A DNA stretch of 37,683 nucleotides, from assembly GCA_043812975.1 (NCBI GenBank), contig JBDRLP010000020.1, positions 1 through 37,683 of the forward strand. Direction: 5' to 3'. Origin of the DNA: Candidatus Iainarchaeum sp. (GTDB lineage Archaea > Iainarchaeota > Iainarchaeia > Iainarchaeales > Iainarchaeaceae). Under the pieces are notes generated by a model. The model had not been told where the DNA came from. It saw only the letters and a program-made list of their open reading frames with translations, and did not search any database. How positions within the stretch are numbered: position 1 is the first letter of the stretch; each line of letters starts with the position of its first letter. The translations under genes were made by a program, and so were the position numbers. Shown here piece after piece: positions 12,586 to 35,425 of the stretch.

Positions 12586-13573
12586 GGCGGTGTAGAAATC
12601 CCTAGCAGTATATAAATAACCACAATTTTATTGTTCTGCCAATCTGCTCTAAGTTGTAGGCTATTGCTTTGATTGTTACCTGCTTCTGCTGGTTGTCTGC
12701 TCTGCGAGAGCAGACATAAGAGCCAAGCGTACGTTTGATAGCAGAGTTAACGCTTTCAATCAGGCTTCTGTAGTTGTATTTGTTTTTGTCAAACAGTTTG
12801 GCTGCTTTTTTGCGGTATTTGCTTTTAAGAAACGGCTTTAGGCCAAAGCCTTGCCTATGTTGTTTCCATTCTCTAACCGGAATATGGACTTCGATACCGT
12901 TATCCCAACAGTAACGCCTGTTAGCTTTGCTGTCATAACCTTTGTCTGCAAGAATACAGGACAGACAGTTCTTCAGTTCTCTAACTAGGGGAATAAAGTC
13001 TAGTGTTTCACTCCGATGGTCTGAATGAGTTCTCACGTTCAGAATAAGCTTGGTCTTATTATCGGTCAAAAACACTGTTTTGGTGTAGTTTTTGACTCTT
13101 ACGCCGTCTATTCGTTTGAGGTAGTGGTGTGAGGGGTTAGTGTTTGAGAAGCCTGTTCCGTCAACACTGCCTGTAACATCTTTTAGGTTTAATAGTTTTC
13201 TGCAGGCTCTAACCATCTTCTCAAGCAACGCCTTAGGGGTGCGTTGCACAAACTTTTGAAGGGTAGTGAAGTGAGGGATTCGTTTGATGAACAGCATGCG
13301 TTTGATGTTGTTCTCTTCACAAATCTCAACAAAGCGACGGTATGCTACGTTCAGTTTCTCCCTGTAGCAAATCAAGAACGCCAGCTTGACGTTGCCATAC
13401 ATCTTTTTGGAAAAGTTAGAGTTTGTATTCTTGACTCCAGATAGCTCACAAAGCCTCTCAACTGACTGATAGAAAGTATTAAGTTTAACAGGATACATAT
13501 TCAAATTGATCACCGATAAATAGGAGGCACAACCTCCTATTTATCACTATTTATAAAGGATTTCTACAGAGCC
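12586..13573 (-). mobile_element. IS5-family insertion sequence (IS903-like ends), 988 bp
   Basis: TIRs GGCGGTGTAGAAATCC (12586-12601) and the reverse complement GGCTCTGTAGAAATCC (13558-13573), 14/16 identical; 9-bp TSD CTATGCCTT at 12577-12585 and 13574-13582. Confidence 0.9.
12602..13513 (-). CDS. IS5-family DDE transposase
   Basis: IPHFTTL, VDGTGF, LADKGYDS and YNYRSLIESVNSAIKR (DDE triad and YREK-like signature). Confidence 0.92.
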   Translation of the reverse strand: MINLNMYPVKLNTFYQSVERLCELSGVKNTNSNFSKKMYGNVKLAFLICYREKLNVAYRRFVEICEENNIKRMLFIKRIPHFTTLQKFVQRTPKALLEKMVRACRKLLNLKDVTGSVDGTGFSNTNPSHHYLKRIDGVRVKNYTKTVFLTDNKTKLILNVRTHSDHRSETLDFIPLVRELKNCLSCILADKGYDSKANRRYCWDNGIEVHIPVREWKQHRQGFGLKPFLKSKYRKKAAKLFDKNKYNYRSLIESVNSAIKRTLGSYVCSRRADNQQKQVTIKAIAYNLEQIGRTIKLWLFIYC

Positions 13574-21960: not shown

Positions 21961-23259
21961 TTATTTTGCTTTAGCAGCCAATATTTTTGCTATTTCTCCT
22001 AGGTCCACTCCTTTCTTTTCAAGCTCTTGATTTATCATTTCCTGCAACTTGTTCATGTGCTCTGCTTTCTTTTCCATCGCCTTGAGCTGCTCAATATGCA
22101 GGGGCTTGCCGCACTTGTTGCAGTATTCGCTGGATTTGATGTTTTGAGCAGAGCAGAAAGGACAGTTAATGGTCTGGCTTGTCAGGGGCTCGTCCTCTTT
22201 CTTGTCCGGCTTCCAGATTCCCTTTTCGACCAGGATTTCTTTTTTCAGGTTTTGGTTTGCGAAGTGAACATAGATTGATGGCATTGTGCTTTGCTTGCTC
22301 CAACCGTACTTGATGCGGAGCTTTGCTTCGTTGTATCCTTTGACTGTGTCCCTCGTTGCAGCGCTGTGCCTGAAGCCATGAGTCCAAACTCTCTTCTTTA
22401 TATTCGCTCTTTTTGCTATGTATTTCAATCGTATGTTTAGCAGGTCACGGGAAAGAACTTTGTCGCCTATCTTTTTATGTGGTCCTAAACCGCCTCGAAC
22501 GAAAGCAAGCCAGATATAGTCTTGTAGGTTCTTTGGAACTTGCCTTTTTCTTTCCTCCAGTTCGAAGAGCCATGCTTCCAGAAATGGCTTGCTCTCAACA
22601 AGAATAACTTCTCGTTTCCCTGTTTTGCCATCAACTTCGAATTCGAGATAGTTCTCTTTTATTTTAAGATCTGATTTTTTCATGTCAAGCAGTTCGGAAG
22701 CACGCAAGCCGTATTCCCATAGGACGGCAATCAGTGCTTTGTCTCTTGTGGTCTTTGCGCTTTTGAGCATCCTGCTTACTTCTTCTGCTGTAAGGATTTC
22801 CTTTTTGAATTTGTCCCAAGACTTGCCGTTTTTGTTTCCAAGACGTTTTATCCAGCGAACTGATTCTGGTGGAGTATCATCGCTTTCCTTGCCGAACAGC
22901 CATCTGTAGAATGTTTTGACTGCGGCCTTCATCTGCCAGAGAGTATTCTCGCTGTAGGATTCAATAGGGATTTTAATTACTGCCCCGTGCTGTGTTTTCA
23001 GAATCCTATCTTCTGGTTTGAGGTTGTTGAAGAAGGAAACCATTTCGGTTTTGCTGATTGCTTCAAACTTTTTCTTTGGAAAGGCTTCGCCTAAGCGGAC
23101 AAGAATGCGTATAACGTAGGGATAGCTTGTTTTCTTTACTCCTTGGGCTACCTTTTCATCAAAGTATTCTTGAACCTTGCGTTTATTGCACGGCAGCATG
23201 CAAGAATTAGCGAGCTTTTTGAGGGCCGATTCAACGTTATAGTTGTCTTTTGCGTTCAT
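21961..23259 (-). CDS. int: Tyrosine recombinase/integrase with C-terminal zinc ribbon
   Basis: GLRASEL (R), DGKTG (K), HGFRH (HxxR), GW...MPSIYVH (W, Y); CPFC...CNKCG; starts 70 bp from the attR repeat. Confidence 0.93.
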   Translation of the reverse strand: MNAKDNYNVESALKKLANSCMLPCNKRKVQEYFDEKVAQGVKKTSYPYVIRILVRLGEAFPKKKFEAISKTEMVSFFNNLKPEDRILKTQHGAVIKIPIESYSENTLWQMKAAVKTFYRWLFGKESDDTPPESVRWIKRLGNKNGKSWDKFKKEILTAEEVSRMLKSAKTTRDKALIAVLWEYGLRASELLDMKKSDLKIKENYLEFEVDGKTGKREVILVESKPFLEAWLFELEERKRQVPKNLQDYIWLAFVRGGLGPHKKIGDKVLSRDLLNIRLKYIAKRANIKKRVWTHGFRHSAATRDTVKGYNEAKLRIKYGWSKQSTMPSIYVHFANQNLKKEILVEKGIWKPDKKEDEPLTSQTINCPFCSAQNIKSSEYCNKCGKPLHIEQLKAMEKKAEHMNKLQEMINQELEKKGVDLGEIAKILAAKAK

Positions 23260-31016: not shown

Positions 31017-33896
31017 TTATTTTTTAAGCTGAATAAAAAATTCCCTATCTAGCACTTTTTCCATTTTTCCTTCCCCTGCGGGGTCAGCAGAGCCAGCAGA
31101 GCTGGAAACAATTTTTGTATTGGTTGATTCCTCAATTTCTTTTTTGTATTTTTTAACAAAACCATTGTCACTGGAACCAAGAGTCATTTCAATCTTATCT
31201 GTTGGATTTAATTTCAGTTGTTTTCTCATGTCCTGTATTTTTCTTCTTAATTCCATTAATTCCCATTCTTCTTTCAATTCCTTGCTTGCATCTAAACTCA
31301 GAAATATTTTTCCTTCTTCGAATTCCTTTGAAGCAAAATTACCTTTTGGTTCTGTTCCTTCTGAAAACTTTTTCACATTTGTCTGCGAAGCAATTATTTC
31401 AATTGTATTTGAAAATTCCTTTTTCTTTCCCACATAAACAAGCTCTTTTAGAGGCCATCTTAATCTCAATTTGTTTTCTTCCCTCAAACTCAGTGTTTCC
31501 TGTGTTAATTCTTTTGCTTTCTGTACTTCTGCTTCAAGTTTTTTATCAATATACTCTTTGTTTCCATTTGGCAGTTCTGTTAAGTGAACTGATTCAGGCA
31601 TTCCGCTGGTTTTTGCGTGCTGGTAAAAGTATTCTGATAAATGAGGAACTATCGGCGCCAGCAATCTTATTAATTCTGAGAACACGTGGCTGAAAACCAC
31701 TGAAACTTCTTTGTCATCATTCTTGACTCTGTCTCTGACTATTTTGATGTAGGTTCTTGAGAATTCCTCAAGAACAAAATTTTCTATAAGCGAAATTGCT
31801 TTTGAATAATTGTAAGTGTTGTAGTGTGCAAGAACTTCTTTGGAAAGAGAATGCATCTTACTCATAATCCATTTGTCTTCTGTTTTCAGGTTTTTTGCAT
31901 TAACCTTTCCGTGTTTCTTTAAATCCAGATCTAAATAGGTTGCTCCGTAGTTGAAAGAATTCCAGAGTACATTAAAGAAACGATTAATTTCTTTGAAAGT
32001 ATCCCAGCTGAACGCCATGTCTTCTCCTTTGAATTCCTGAGCAATATAAAACCTCAAATAATCCCTGTTGTATTTTTCAATTACTTCCTGCGGAGAAACA
32101 ATGTTTCCTGTACTTTTTGACATCTTGATTTTGCTTACATCAAGAACCATTCCATGCATTGCAATGTCTTTGAAAGGTGCTTTGTCAAAACAGATTGTGC
32201 TGCAGATTAATTGTGAGTTCCACCAGCCCCTTATCTGGTCTTTTCCCTCAACATTAAAATCAGCAGGCCAGTATTTTTCAAATTTTTTCTTATTTTCCGG
32301 ATAACCAATACTTCCCCAAGAAGATACTCCTGAGTCAAACCATACATCCATGACTTCTGAAACTCTTTTTACGTTTCCGCCGCATTTACATTTCCATTCA
32401 ATTTTATCAATCCAAGGTTTATGTAAATCCTTTATTTTGCCTTTGTAATGCTTTTCAAGTTCTTTTTGTGAAGCTATAATTGTTCTTGTTTCACATGAAT
32501 CACAAAGCCAGATTGGTAGAGGAGTTCCCCAATAACGCTGTCTTGAAATAGGCCAGTCTCCCAGACTATCAAGCCAGTTTTTGAAACGGTCTTTTCCCCA
32601 TGAAGGATACCAATTAACTCCTTCATTGAGCTTTAACATTTTTTTTCTGATTTCTGTAACTTTGAAAAACCACTGCGGAGTGCTAATCATTAACAATGGG
32701 CTTTTGCATCTCCAGCAGATTGGATAATCATGAGTATAAGGGTGCCTGTAAACCAAAGCATTATCTGCTTCCAAATCTTTGATTATTTCTTCATCCACAA
32801 CTCTTGCTTTTTTTCCTGCATATTTCCCGCCTTCTTCTGTAAACAAACCATTAGTATTTACAATACTAATAACAGGCAAACCTGCTTTGGTTCCTTCATC
32901 ATAATCTTCTTTTCCGCAGCCAGGTGCTGTATGAACTAATCCGGTTCCTTCTTCCAAGTTTACATATCTTTCACTCATTATTACTCTGTAACCGTTTTTA
33001 ATTTCCTCAAGTTTCAAATGCTTTGCCAATGGGTTTTCGTATTCAGTTCCTTCAAGTTCCTTTCCTTTGAATTCTCTTTTAACAGTGTAACCTGCTTCTG
33101 CTGCATCCATCAATTGTTGTAATTTTTCTTTTGCAATTATCCATGTTTCTCCCATTACTTCTGCTTCAACGTAATCGTATTTCGGATTAACCATTATTCC
33201 TGTGTTTGAAGGCAAGGTCCAGGGAGTTGTTGTCCAGATGATTAAGTATTTGTTTTCTTTTCCCTTGACTTTGAATTTTACATAAACAGAAGTGTCTGTT
33301 TGTTTTGTGTACTCAATTTCGTTGTAAGCAACTGCTGTTTCACAATGAGTGCATGCGTGGACTGGATACTTTCCTAAATAAAGTAAACCTTTTTCATCTG
33401 CTTTTTTGAAAGTCCACCAGATTGCTTCAATGTACTCGTTGTTCAGAGTTAAATATGGGTTTTCCCAGTCCATCCATACCCCGAGATTATCAAATTCTTC
33501 GTTCATTATGTCAATGTATTGTGTTGCGAATGTTCTGCATTTTTCAATAAACTTTCCAATGCCGTATTTTTCAATTTCATCTTTTGTTTTTAATCCAAGT
33601 TCTTTCTCAACCTTGTTTTCAATTGGCAAACCATGTGTGTCATAACCCGGCTGGTCCAAAACAGAATAACCCTGCATTCTTTTGTGTCGCATTGTAATGT
33701 CTTTTACAATTTTGTTCAGAGCAGTTCCCATGTGTATGTGTCCTGAAGCATACGGAGGACCGTCCATCAGATAAAAGCCTTTTCCTTTTTCGTTTTGGTT
33801 TCTGGCTTTATCAGCTATTTTATTTTTTACCCAAAACTTTCGGACTTTTTCCTCGTTTTCCAAATTATACTGTTCCAGTTTTTTCATGGTTTTCAC
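31017..33896 (-). CDS. ileS: Isoleucine-tRNA ligase
   Basis: DGPPYASGHIHMGT, WTTTPWTLP, GTGLVH.APG, DWPISRQRYWGTP, EGKDQIRGW, KMSKS. Confidence 0.97.
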   Translation of the reverse strand: MKTMKKLEQYNLENEEKVRKFWVKNKIADKARNQNEKGKGFYLMDGPPYASGHIHMGTALNKIVKDITMRHKRMQGYSVLDQPGYDTHGLPIENKVEKELGLKTKDEIEKYGIGKFIEKCRTFATQYIDIMNEEFDNLGVWMDWENPYLTLNNEYIEAIWWTFKKADEKGLLYLGKYPVHACTHCETAVAYNEIEYTKQTDTSVYVKFKVKGKENKYLIIWTTTPWTLPSNTGIMVNPKYDYVEAEVMGETWIIAKEKLQQLMDAAEAGYTVKREFKGKELEGTEYENPLAKHLKLEEIKNGYRVIMSERYVNLEEGTGLVHTAPGCGKEDYDEGTKAGLPVISIVNTNGLFTEEGGKYAGKKARVVDEEIIKDLEADNALVYRHPYTHDYPICWRCKSPLLMISTPQWFFKVTEIRKKMLKLNEGVNWYPSWGKDRFKNWLDSLGDWPISRQRYWGTPLPIWLCDSCETRTIIASQKELEKHYKGKIKDLHKPWIDKIEWKCKCGGNVKRVSEVMDVWFDSGVSSWGSIGYPENKKKFEKYWPADFNVEGKDQIRGWWNSQLICSTICFDKAPFKDIAMHGMVLDVSKIKMSKSTGNIVSPQEVIEKYNRDYLRFYIAQEFKGEDMAFSWDTFKEINRFFNVLWNSFNYGATYLDLDLKKHGKVNAKNLKTEDKWIMSKMHSLSKEVLAHYNTYNYSKAISLIENFVLEEFSRTYIKIVRDRVKNDDKEVSVVFSHVFSELIRLLAPIVPHLSEYFYQHAKTSGMPESVHLTELPNGNKEYIDKKLEAEVQKAKELTQETLSLREENKLRLRWPLKELVYVGKKKEFSNTIEIIASQTNVKKFSEGTEPKGNFASKEFEEGKIFLSLDASKELKEEWELMELRRKIQDMRKQLKLNPTDKIEMTLGSSDNGFVKKYKKEIEESTNTKIVSSSAGSADPAGEGKMEKVLDREFFIQLKK

Positions 33897-34017
33897 TCGA
33901 TTATATTATTTCTAAATTATCTAATAATAATTGAATTGCATTAATTTTGAAATAATCATTATTGGTTATATAGCTTTAAAAGGCACATTTTTATTAAACT
34001 TAAACAATTTTCTTATT

Positions 34018-34734
34018 ATGGCTAAAACCGCGGTTATTATTCCTGCTTATAATGAGGAAGAGTATATTTCTGATGTTCTGAATTCTGCTCTTAAGTGGCA
34101 TAAAAAAGATCCAAGAAACAGGAGTGTTATTGTAGTTAATGATGGAAGTAAGGATAGAACTGCTGAAATAGCCCGCAAGTCCGGTGCCACTGTTTTGCGA
34201 TCGGATGGTAAAAAAATTTCCAAAGAAGGGCTTAATGGGCCTAATATGGGAAAAGCAGAAGCAGTTAGACGTGGAGTAATTCATGCGGCTTCACAGGGGT
34301 GTTCTGCTATTGTTATGCTTGATGCAGATCTCTCGCCTTTTGAACCAAGAAAAATTGATGAATTAGTAATGCATTTGAATAAGCCAAATGTTGACATGGT
34401 TGTTGCCAAAATAGATTCTGAGGGATCATATTCAAAGTTTAGTGGGCAAAGAGCAATAAAAGTCAGTGCTTTGAGGGGTTTTATTAATGGCGTGGCTAGT
34501 TGGAAAGAGCTTGCTCAAGGTTATGGACTTGAACATGCATTGAATAGTCTTGTTCAAAAAAAAGTGGATAGTAGTTTGCTTTTTGAACAAAAAAGAAAAG
34601 TTAGAAGAACAGATCAAATGGACCGCGAAATGACTAGAACTTTTGGTCTTGCAATACGAAGAAGGTCATACGCAGAAAAATTAGTGGATTCATTAGTCCG
34701 CAGAGTAAATTCATCAATACGCAGACGAAAATAA
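34018..34734 (+). CDS. GT2-family glycosyltransferase
   Basis: IIPAYNEE, VVNDGSKDRT, GKAEA, MLDADL, SGQRA, GYGLE; ATG at 34018. Confidence 0.88.
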   Translation: MAKTAVIIPAYNEEEYISDVLNSALKWHKKDPRNRSVIVVNDGSKDRTAEIARKSGATVLRSDGKKISKEGLNGPNMGKAEAVRRGVIHAASQGCSAIVMLDADLSPFEPRKIDELVMHLNKPNVDMVVAKIDSEGSYSKFSGQRAIKVSALRGFINGVASWKELAQGYGLEHALNSLVQKKVDSSLLFEQKRKVRRTDQMDREMTRTFGLAIRRRSYAEKLVDSLVRRVNSSIRRRK

Positions 34735-34773
34735 AAGCAATATATGAGTAGTTCTACTTTTTTCACTTTTGTT

Positions 34774-35014
34774 GCAAAGTAAATGAGTCAGGCAAAGAGC
34801 CCTTGTCCCATCCGATGAGCATGCACGAATGGGAGTAAGCGGATTTGAACCGCTGACCCTTGGTGTATAAGACCAATGCTCTGACCAGGCTGAGCTATAC
34901 TCCCACAACCGTTGCGTCGGTTGGGTACGCGTCCACCTCGTCTCGCAGAGACTCGGTAGGACTGAAACGTACTGAGATACTGCTCAGGCTCAGTGCTACT
35001 GACTCTTACTTTGC
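34774..35014 (-). ncRNA. Putative structured RNA enclosing tRNA-Ile(UAU)
   Basis: GC-rich flanks; ends pair (9 bp + 7 bp); three leader hairpins; TATA box at about 35030-35039. Confidence 0.55.
34830..34904 (-). tRNA. tRNA-Ile (anticodon UAU), no intron, CCA not encoded
   Basis: GGGAGTA acceptor/TACTCCC-A; D arm GCTC/GAGC; TTGGT-CT-TAT-AC-ACCAA anticodon arm; AGCGG-TTCAAAT-CCGCT T arm. Confidence 0.93.
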
Positions 35015-35083
35015 TATTTTATTGAATTTATTTATATATTAAAAGCACTAAATTAGGTTTAAAAAGGTAAAGAAAAGCTGATT

Positions 35084-35425
35084 CTAGAATTCCTTTAGAG
35101 AAACGTTGTTTGCCGTGTTTATTTCAAAATCTGCTTCAATTTCCTTTAAAGAACCGTATTTTCCCTTGTTCAGGGTTAAGGAATTCAGGTAAAGATTTGT
35201 ATATGCTTCTGTGATTTTGTAATGTTTTCCTTCCTGTACTTCTTCAATATCTTCATCCCAGAGAGAAAGATGTATGCATCCAGATTCATCTCCCACAAGA
35301 ACATCACACACTTTGTGAAACATTGAATCCAGTTTAGTTGTTACTTCTCTCGGTTCTGTTTTTTCCTCAACTTTAAAAATCAGTTCTAATTTTTTTTGAT
35401 CTGGAATTAAACTGGAGATTTTCAT
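35084..35425 (-). CDS. Single OB-fold ssDNA-binding protein (SSB/RPA-like)
   Basis: MKISSL...KV.EK.EPREV...VGDESG.I.LSLW...I.EAYT....L.LN.GKYG. Confidence 0.85.
   Translation of the reverse strand: MKISSLIPDQKKLELIFKVEEKTEPREVTTKLDSMFHKVCDVLVGDESGCIHLSLWDEDIEEVQEGKHYKITEAYTNLYLNSLTLNKGKYGSLKEIEADFEINTANNVSLKEF

Follow-up and report, generated by a model that had tools for sequence, protein, structure and literature searches.

A dispersed pseudoknot-hairpin element is the probable passenger in a composite tRNA-Ile(UAU) precursor region of a Candidatus Iainarchaeum genome

Here we analyzed a tRNA-Ile(UAU) locus in a 37,683-nucleotide (nt) stretch of DNA from Candidatus Iainarchaeum sp. (contig JBDRLP010000020.1, hereafter the window) and found that the structured leader in front of the tRNA contains one copy of a dispersed, knotted repeat. 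The tRNA gene lies at 34830–34904 on the minus strand (called by ARAGORN and by Rfam, 72.7 bits), inside a 241-nt block, 34774–35014, with a folding energy of −101 kcal/mol against −73.1 ± 4.6 for shuffled sequences (z = −6.05; 0 of 200 shuffles as low). The original prediction, made from the letters of the window, had read this block as an undescribed noncoding RNA, ribozyme or maturation switch for a potentially miscoding tRNA. The structured fold is real and matches no described family; it is not one RNA dedicated to tRNA-Ile(UAU), as a repeat found throughout the genome supplies two of the three hairpins in the leader. The best explanation, to which we assign a probability of roughly 0.7, is that the block is a composite precursor region whose middle is a passenger insertion element. 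A ribozyme or switch role is unsupported.

Results

The leader holds a copy of a dispersed, covarying pseudoknot element

The source genome (G000) comprises 1.24 Mb in 68 contigs and is 94.5% complete; related genomes are labeled in the same manner, and 61 genomes were searched. With the 241-nt block as query, leader positions 45–116 matched 11 other sites in G000 and many in other genomes, and positions 1–44 and 186–241 had no other match in G000. The repeated part comprises the second and third hairpins of the leader, which together form one copy of a structured element of ~55–65 nt at 34963–34905(−). This copy scores 72.8 bits with a model built from 15 G000 copies (R1) and 71.9 bits with a broader model built from 24 copies (R2). 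R1 has 41 matches in G000 at E ≤ 0.01. R2 also has 41 there and has matches in 35 of the 61 genomes and in 19 of the 22 genomes of the family, at 1 to 41 copies per genome with matches.

The element begins with a hairpin that has tandem GA on both strands, breaking up its stem, and a variable distal hairpin as its cap; 3–4 bases, a short linker and a 6-base-pair (bp) hairpin follow. The loop of this second hairpin is complementary to the 3–4 bases before the linker, generating a compact H-type pseudoknot. In the window, domain 1, containing the tandem-GA internal loop and the distal hairpin, spans 34931–34962(−), the 5′ strand of the pseudoknot (GCGU) lies at 34927–34930(−), and domain 2, the 6-bp hairpin, occupies 34906–34923(−) with the 3′ strand of the pseudoknot (ACGC, 34917–34914) in its loop. 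A single linker base, 34905, separates domain 2 from position +1 of the tRNA.

Covariation was evaluated in two alignments. When 64 copies are aligned to the model, pairing holds in 89.8% of 1249 cells, and both partners vary in 22 of 23 pairs, comprising 12 of 13 pairs in helices 1–3 of domain 1 (76–99% of cells paired), 4 of 4 in helix 4, the pseudoknot (84.5%), and 6 of 6 in helices 5 and 6 of domain 2 (95–99%). The pseudoknot helix was absent from the covariance model that built this alignment, in which more than 10 different complementary pseudoknot strand pairs are readable. The covariation score of the 64-copy alignment was reached by 0 of 500 shuffles, and sliding the 3′ partners by 1–3 columns reduced pairing to 32–44%. 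In the second alignment, made with MAFFT from 24 copies, 89.4% of 490 cells pair, with both-side changes in 19 of 23 pairs. The hairpins drawn earlier at 34962–34931 and 34923–34906 are thus real and covarying. A kink-turn was considered for the tandem-GA loop and rejected, the bulge in the alignments being 0 or 1 nt instead of 3 nt.

Longer variants with extra hairpins occur at C1:49720–49813, C21:18198–18294, C14:21546–21624, C23:10224–10296 and C60:306–368 of G000. The additional hairpins are nested either between the 5′ strand of the knot and the second hairpin or within the loop of the second hairpin.

A covarying knot with so many complementary strand pairs might be a cis-acting RNA module, namely a small self-cleaving ribozyme that, by cutting at the 3′ end of the element, makes the tRNA 5′ end, or a knotted, cap-like 5′ shield or mark for the RNA downstream. 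Such a module would suit a junction to tRNA +1 that is fixed at 0–1 nt, both at five tRNAs of this genome and at tRNA-Ile across genera, as well as the persistence of the fold at the tRNA-Ile site and a lean of the copies toward the sense strand (25 versus 9; described below). Several observations argue the other way. An Rfam scan of 34600–35200 down to E = 10 returned tRNA as the sole matching family: hammerhead, hepatitis delta virus (HDV)-like, twister, pistol, hatchet and hairpin ribozyme models gave no match at E ≤ 10, and covariance models of RNase P RNA, signal recognition particle (SRP) RNA and GOLLD had no match at the locus, in agreement with the earlier statement that RNase P, SRP, HDV and hammerhead motifs are missing. 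Unpaired positions are poorly conserved, and the best-conserved unpaired motif, the tandem-GA loop, is missing from several copies together with the distal hairpin, which argues against a catalytic core. Moreover, 9 of 45 copies are antisense to both neighbors, copies lie within or between protein genes with target duplications, and G000 has an RNase P RNA gene elsewhere (C12:5796–6107, 97.1 bits), so a removal route for the leader exists. We therefore regard a cis-acting module as distinctly unlikely.

The hammerhead, HDV-like and pistol topologies were also mapped by hand onto the fold, and none fitted. Archaeal RNase P RNA was matched once more, in part, near a contig end (C22:7438–7569(+), 42.7 bits, below the cut-off, model positions 36–191).

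Many copies elsewhere lie between duplicated target sequences

We analyzed 45 copies in G000, namely the 41 matches of R1 and 4 more listed by R2. Forty of them do not adjoin a tRNA, and many are located at the borders of protein genes between the two copies of a duplicated target. In 16 of the 45 copies, the flanks carry a direct duplication that scores higher than 99% of 1980 control pairs of mismatched flanks. The duplications are variable in length (14–47 nt), with identities of 40/40 and 36/37 nt in two copies, and the duplicated targets are the ends or starts of genes, coupled stop/start junctions and, in one case, the 3′ portion of a tRNA-Arg. The two junctions differ in character. The downstream repeat begins 1–3 nt past the model hit in 15 of 16 cases, the hit itself extending 1–3 nt beyond the last hairpin, whereas the upstream repeat ends anywhere from 1 to 34 nt before the hit, giving a ragged 5′ side and a fixed 3′ junction.

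Relative to neighboring open reading frames (ORFs), as judged from crude ORF calls, 25 copies are in the same orientation, 9 are opposite and 11 are mixed (n = 45). The longest copies, at 94–97 nt, are the two with the near-perfect target duplications of 37–40 nt.

The element abuts several tRNA genes

By the Rfam tRNA model G000 has 31 tRNA genes, compared with 20 by ARAGORN under the options used; several of the tRNAs missed by ARAGORN were found at a lower threshold on short stretches. At five of the 31, tRNA-Ile-UAU, Glu-UUC, Ser-GCU, Leu-GAG and Trp-CCA, the element ends 0–1 nt before +1, and in G015 and G021 it adjoins tRNA-Lys-UUU. Two other origins of the sequences around tRNA-Ile(UAU) were tried. 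Derivation of the leader from the tRNA 5′ part by decay was not significant (298 of 2000 shuffles reached the gapped score), and neither was resemblance of the trailer to the tRNA in direct or inverted orientation.

One conceivable explanation is that tRNA leaders are the home of the element, that RNase P makes its 3′ end and that the released leader RNA seeds further copies by an RNA-mediated route resembling that of short interspersed nuclear elements (SINEs). If true, this would account for the abutment at 0–1 nt, for a 3′ junction that is sharp and a 5′ side that is ragged, and for duplications that are long and variable, and it would imply an archaeal SINE-like system with an unrecognized enzyme in a genome without a recognizable standard reverse transcriptase. 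We consider such an origin highly unlikely.

Genes that might mobilize the element were sought in G000. No RVT_1 match indicative of a reverse transcriptase was obtained in this 94.5% complete assembly, and no Y1/HUH transposase or Cas1 was found in it. One TnpB-like gene, four tyrosine recombinases and two DDE genes are present, and nothing was found tying any of them to the element. The window itself encodes a DDE_Tnp_1 homologue at 12650–13177(−) and a tyrosine-recombinase homologue at 22255–22797(−). The sole relative of this DDE gene in G000, at C3:23821–24324, is 79% alike over only 91 nt, so insertion ends are not definable, and the idea that the two are copies of one insertion sequence was rejected on the same grounds. 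The sole TnpB-like ORF (C9:1277–1474(−), 408-amino-acid open frame) and the element copy at C9:3848–3907 are 2.4 kb apart.

The element region is swapped between close relatives at the tRNA-Ile(UAU) site

To place the window copy in context, 30 relative loci were fetched, 25 of which hold a central tRNA with a UAU anticodon. The element adjoins tRNA-Ile(UAU) in 12 of the 25 by R2, representing two families and several genera. Seven loci have no structured insert, their leader being short and AT-rich, and a few others contain a different structured insert. In G002 (locus L004) and G010 (L006), a different GC-rich, two-hairpin insert was observed at this place, in the ~60 nt upstream of tRNA-Ile(UAU), ending 1–2 nt before the tRNA; R2 has no match at L004, the only one of these two loci that was searched.

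A promoter-like box, consisting of a T-rich/A-rich stretch followed by AACCTAAT, is found at 35052–35065(−). The AACCTAAT motif itself (35059–35052) occurs upstream of tRNA-Ile(UAU) in 18 of the 25 loci, and its distance to +1 is 41–66 nt in four loci without an insert versus 102–177 nt in 14 with one. Lying between the likely promoter and the tRNA, the insert should be part of the transcript. The usual archaeal spacing between box and start places the start near 35036. The leader would then measure ~130 nt and include the outer stem described below. An AT-rich run at about 35030–35039 had been taken for the TATA box, implying a leader of ~105 nt. It is probably not the promoter and would instead lie at the start site.

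Comparison of G000 with G003, a member of the same genus, points to an exchange confined largely to the element. The two genomes are identical at 75 of 75 positions of the tRNA, at 30 of 34 positions of the 5′ leader and at 44 of 50 positions of the trailer (plus 6 gaps). In the element only 32 of 56 positions are identical (plus 5 gaps), with a different knot and a different second-hairpin sequence, and the G003 element still scores 57 bits. Contigs from four DNA sequencing runs were also examined; most covered the tRNA alone, and one, a marine metagenome contig, showed a replaced element region, keeping both flanks and carrying 75 other letters in place of 74. In G005, an apparent decayed copy was read by eye at the same place. 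Persistence of the fold across genera fits either selection or repeated replacement, and the G000/G003 pair favors replacement, at least within the genus.

In an alignment of window positions 34774–35014 with loci L002, L003 and L017, the T-arm of tRNA-Ile(UAU) exists in two compensated versions, one in G000 and G003 and the other in G001 and G005. The flanks group otherwise than the T-arm, which looks like recombination within the locus.

A leader–trailer helix encloses the tRNA in four genomes

Outside the element, the flanks of the tRNA are joined by a long-range closing helix. Its 5′ strand lies in the unique leader segment 34981–35014(−), which has a single copy in G000 and is identical at 30 of 34 positions in G001 as in G003. 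Its 3′ strand lies in the trailer, 34774–34821(−), in four blocks indicated by folds and complementarity (TGCTCA at 34821–34816; 34801–34797; 34794–34785; 34782–34774). The leader aligned to the reverse-complemented trailer scored 32, a value reached by 1 of 2000 shuffles. The outer stem proposed earlier between 35014–34999 and 34791–34774 is therefore present, and both the tRNA call and its enclosure by paired flanks were borne out.

The helix is also predicted in G001, G003 and G005, giving four genomes of the genus together with G000. Three substitutions in G003 either preserve pairing or extend it, an additional block of 7 bp is found on both strands of the G000 helix, and the G005 helix is made from different sequence. 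A 17-nt word from the trailer had 114 matches in metagenome contigs; among the 80 loci fetched, one was a true relative, identical to G001 where compared, so the helix still rests on four genomes.

The earlier suggestion that TGAGCA (34986–34981) and TGCTCA (34821–34816) form a pseudoknot fared less well. The two strings are complementary, and they are invariant in G000, G001 and G003, the three genomes having both. Their pairing is nested in the outer helix, which it extends across a 14-nt bulge unless hairpin 1 forms, and is not a demonstrated pseudoknot. The pseudoknot that is supported instead lies within the element, between 34930–34927 and 34917–34914. Hairpin 1 (34969–34996(−)), the first of the three leader hairpins, matches the sequence at the coordinates assigned to it and is specific to G000. 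Its 3′ half is gapped out in the nearest relatives (11 nt in G001 and 10 nt in G003), so the hairpin is absent there, and, as read from the sequence, it cannot form together with pairs of the closing helix.

A further hairpin, predicted in G000, G003 and G005 (in the window at 34806–34834(−)), pairs the 3′ acceptor strand and discriminator of the tRNA with the trailer and thus competes with the acceptor stem; the G005 version uses different sequence. A bulge-helix-bulge site in the closing helix was rejected by eye. G000 has 2-nt bulges 7 bp apart rather than two 3-nt bulges separated by 4 bp, and the helix in G001 and G003 has a single bulge of 5–6 nt on one strand. A splicing endonuclease gene is present in G000, and a search for an RNase III gene, whose product might read the helix, found none in this 94% complete genome.

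tRNA-Ile(UAU) lies upstream of ileS in most related loci

Thermosome, isoleucyl-tRNA synthetase (IleRS) and deoxyhypusine synthase genes are recognizable in the ORF list of G000. The IleRS gene, ileS, lies 3′ of tRNA-Ile(UAU) on the same strand, within 3–383 nt, in 21 of 24 related loci. In G001, G003 and G005 it starts 54–86 nt past the tRNA with no T-run between, and in other genera T-rich trailers follow the tRNA. In G000, ileS is 933 nt away, and an opposite-strand, glycosyltransferase-like ORF (33931–34734) intervenes; tRNA and ileS together span 31017–34904(−). A duplicated ileS start beside the glycosyltransferase-like ORF was not significant (score 22 versus a shuffle mean of 21). Retention of the tRNA immediately ahead of its cognate synthetase gene throughout an archaeal order points to co-transcription or co-inheritance.

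This arrangement raises the possibility that the leader–trailer helix is the functional core of the locus, acting as a processing or stability stem linked to co-transcription of tRNA-Ile(UAU) and ileS; after excision of the tRNA, the leader, still carrying its triphosphate, would remain base-paired with the newly made 5′ terminus of the ileS mRNA and would shield or regulate that message. The same-strand order of tRNA and ileS, the short, T-run-free spacers of G001, G003 and G005, the retention of the helix in four genomes (with other sequence in G005) and the pair-preserving substitutions of G003 are consistent with such a role. G000, however, keeps the helix, 7 bp longer, even though its ileS is distant and lies behind an opposite-strand ORF. 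The restriction of the helix to four related genomes, the T-rich trailers of other genera, and the failure to find a bulge-helix-bulge or an RNase III gene likewise count against it, and we regard a core role for the helix as doubtful.

The reading of all 241 nt as one undescribed noncoding RNA, ribozyme or maturation switch for a potentially miscoding tRNA-Ile(UAU) can be weighed at this point. A fold far beyond shuffled sequences (z = −6.05) would be expected of such an RNA, and the trailer hairpin offers, opposite the acceptor stem, the alternative pairing that a switch needs. Nevertheless, a dispersed repeat makes up the middle third of the block, the closest relatives lack hairpin 1, 7 of 25 loci have no structured insert, and the element also fronts five other kinds of tRNA. 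A single dedicated RNA is thus hardly credible.

Discussion

Collectively, these data are best explained by a composite precursor region in which the element is a passenger. It would have arrived by the insertion process that leaves 14–47-nt target duplications elsewhere. Transcription would run from the conserved box, starting near 35036 and yielding the ~130-nt leader. Ordinary RNase P would cut at +1 and discard the leader with the element, and the trailer would be trimmed by the usual 3′ enzymes. The closing helix may join the flanks and shield folding of the tRNA from a long foreign leader; in relatives with a close ileS, it may in addition keep the leader attached to the 5′ terminus of the ileS transcript.

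Several points weigh against the passenger account. No target duplication is detectable around the window copy, whose flanks score 13 where the 99th percentile of the controls is 25, so insertion at the tRNA-Ile site is inferred from the family, and none of the five tRNA-adjoining copies of G000 has a detectable flank duplication. The abutment at 0–1 nt at all five tRNAs is unlike random upstream insertion, and the account leaves it unexplained. The fold is kept at the tRNA-Ile site in 12 of 25 loci across genera, which could reflect selection for function, and the mostly sense orientation (25 same versus 9 opposite) would suit a role at the RNA level. The role proposed for the closing helix rests on four genomes.

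A full-text literature search found no description of this element. It resembles miniature inverted-repeat transposable elements (MITEs) and further small, nonautonomous repeats of prokaryotes, namely Sulfolobus SM elements, Correia elements, repetitive extragenic palindromic and bacterial interspersed mosaic elements (REP/BIME), RUP and Rickettsia palindromic elements, which are likewise short, noncoding, dispersed, hairpin-forming and located at gene borders. Unlike MITEs, it has no terminal inverted repeats as read from the copy alignments, with no dedicated repeat search run, and its duplications are variable at 14–47 nt rather than short and fixed. A covarying pseudoknot and exact abutment to tRNA +1 set it further apart, and no parent element was identified. 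With SINEs, which are nonautonomous eukaryotic retroposons, it shares variable duplications, sharp 3′ and ragged 5′ junctions, ends without inverted repeats, strand-specific RNA-like structure and association with tRNA genes; it differs in having no A-rich tail and in not being tRNA-derived, and no reverse transcriptase was found in G000. One copy, at C23:18009, follows a tRNA-Arg, the 3′ part of which recurs in diverged form, over 27 nt, just past the element, an arrangement reminiscent of archaeal tRNA-targeting integrative elements of the SSV and pNOB8 types. In contrast to these, each copy duplicates another target, there is no fixed attachment site, and the unit is ~55 nt without an integrase.

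At the level of fold, the compact knot, with a 3–4-bp stem 1, a 6-bp stem 2 and a 2-nt A-rich loop 3, is similar to preQ1-I and SAM-II riboswitches and to viral frameshift knots. The element differs from these in having no Rfam match and in standing before unrelated genes and tRNAs in both orientations, and it is evidently mobile, given its copy number and target duplications. The closing helix, for its part, recalls the processing stems of archaeal rRNA operons and leader–trailer pairing in pre-tRNAs, in which the same kind of long helix surrounds a stable RNA. It differs from the rRNA-operon stems in having no motif of two 3-nt bulges separated by 4 bp, in enclosing one tRNA and in occurring in four genomes only.

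Among published insertions with long, variable target duplication are restriction-modification units in bacteria (Furuta, Abe and Kobayashi 2010; PMC2853133). These inserts, like the element, are reported to be accompanied by direct duplications of tens of bases at a unique target, with no other mobile element recognizable. They are gene units of kilobase size, and archaeal candidates reportedly all failed the screen, whereas here dozens of noncoding copies of 55–97 nt are found. A Diapherotrites transposon is on record as well, a transposase copy of which was assembled as a 1.5-kb contig (PMC5905446).

The locus demonstrates that a mobile insert can mimic a dedicated leader RNA, and the false lead of a new ribozyme or tRNA switch is removed. 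What it contributes in return is threefold: the knot is placed at exact coordinates, an example of same-site swapping is documented, and the element is linked to a conserved promoter box. The conserved pairing of tRNA-Ile(UAU) with ileS hints at a putative link between an unusual tRNA and its synthetase. More broadly, a widespread knotted unit exists in dozens of copies in genomes of ~1 Mb, lies one base from tRNA starts, can be swapped at one site between close relatives and is associated with long, variable target duplications unexplained by known transposase families. The element lengthens tRNA leaders two- to four-fold, so RNase P must cope with a stable knot beside its cleavage site, and it may bear on how archaeal tRNA genes acquire extra sequence.

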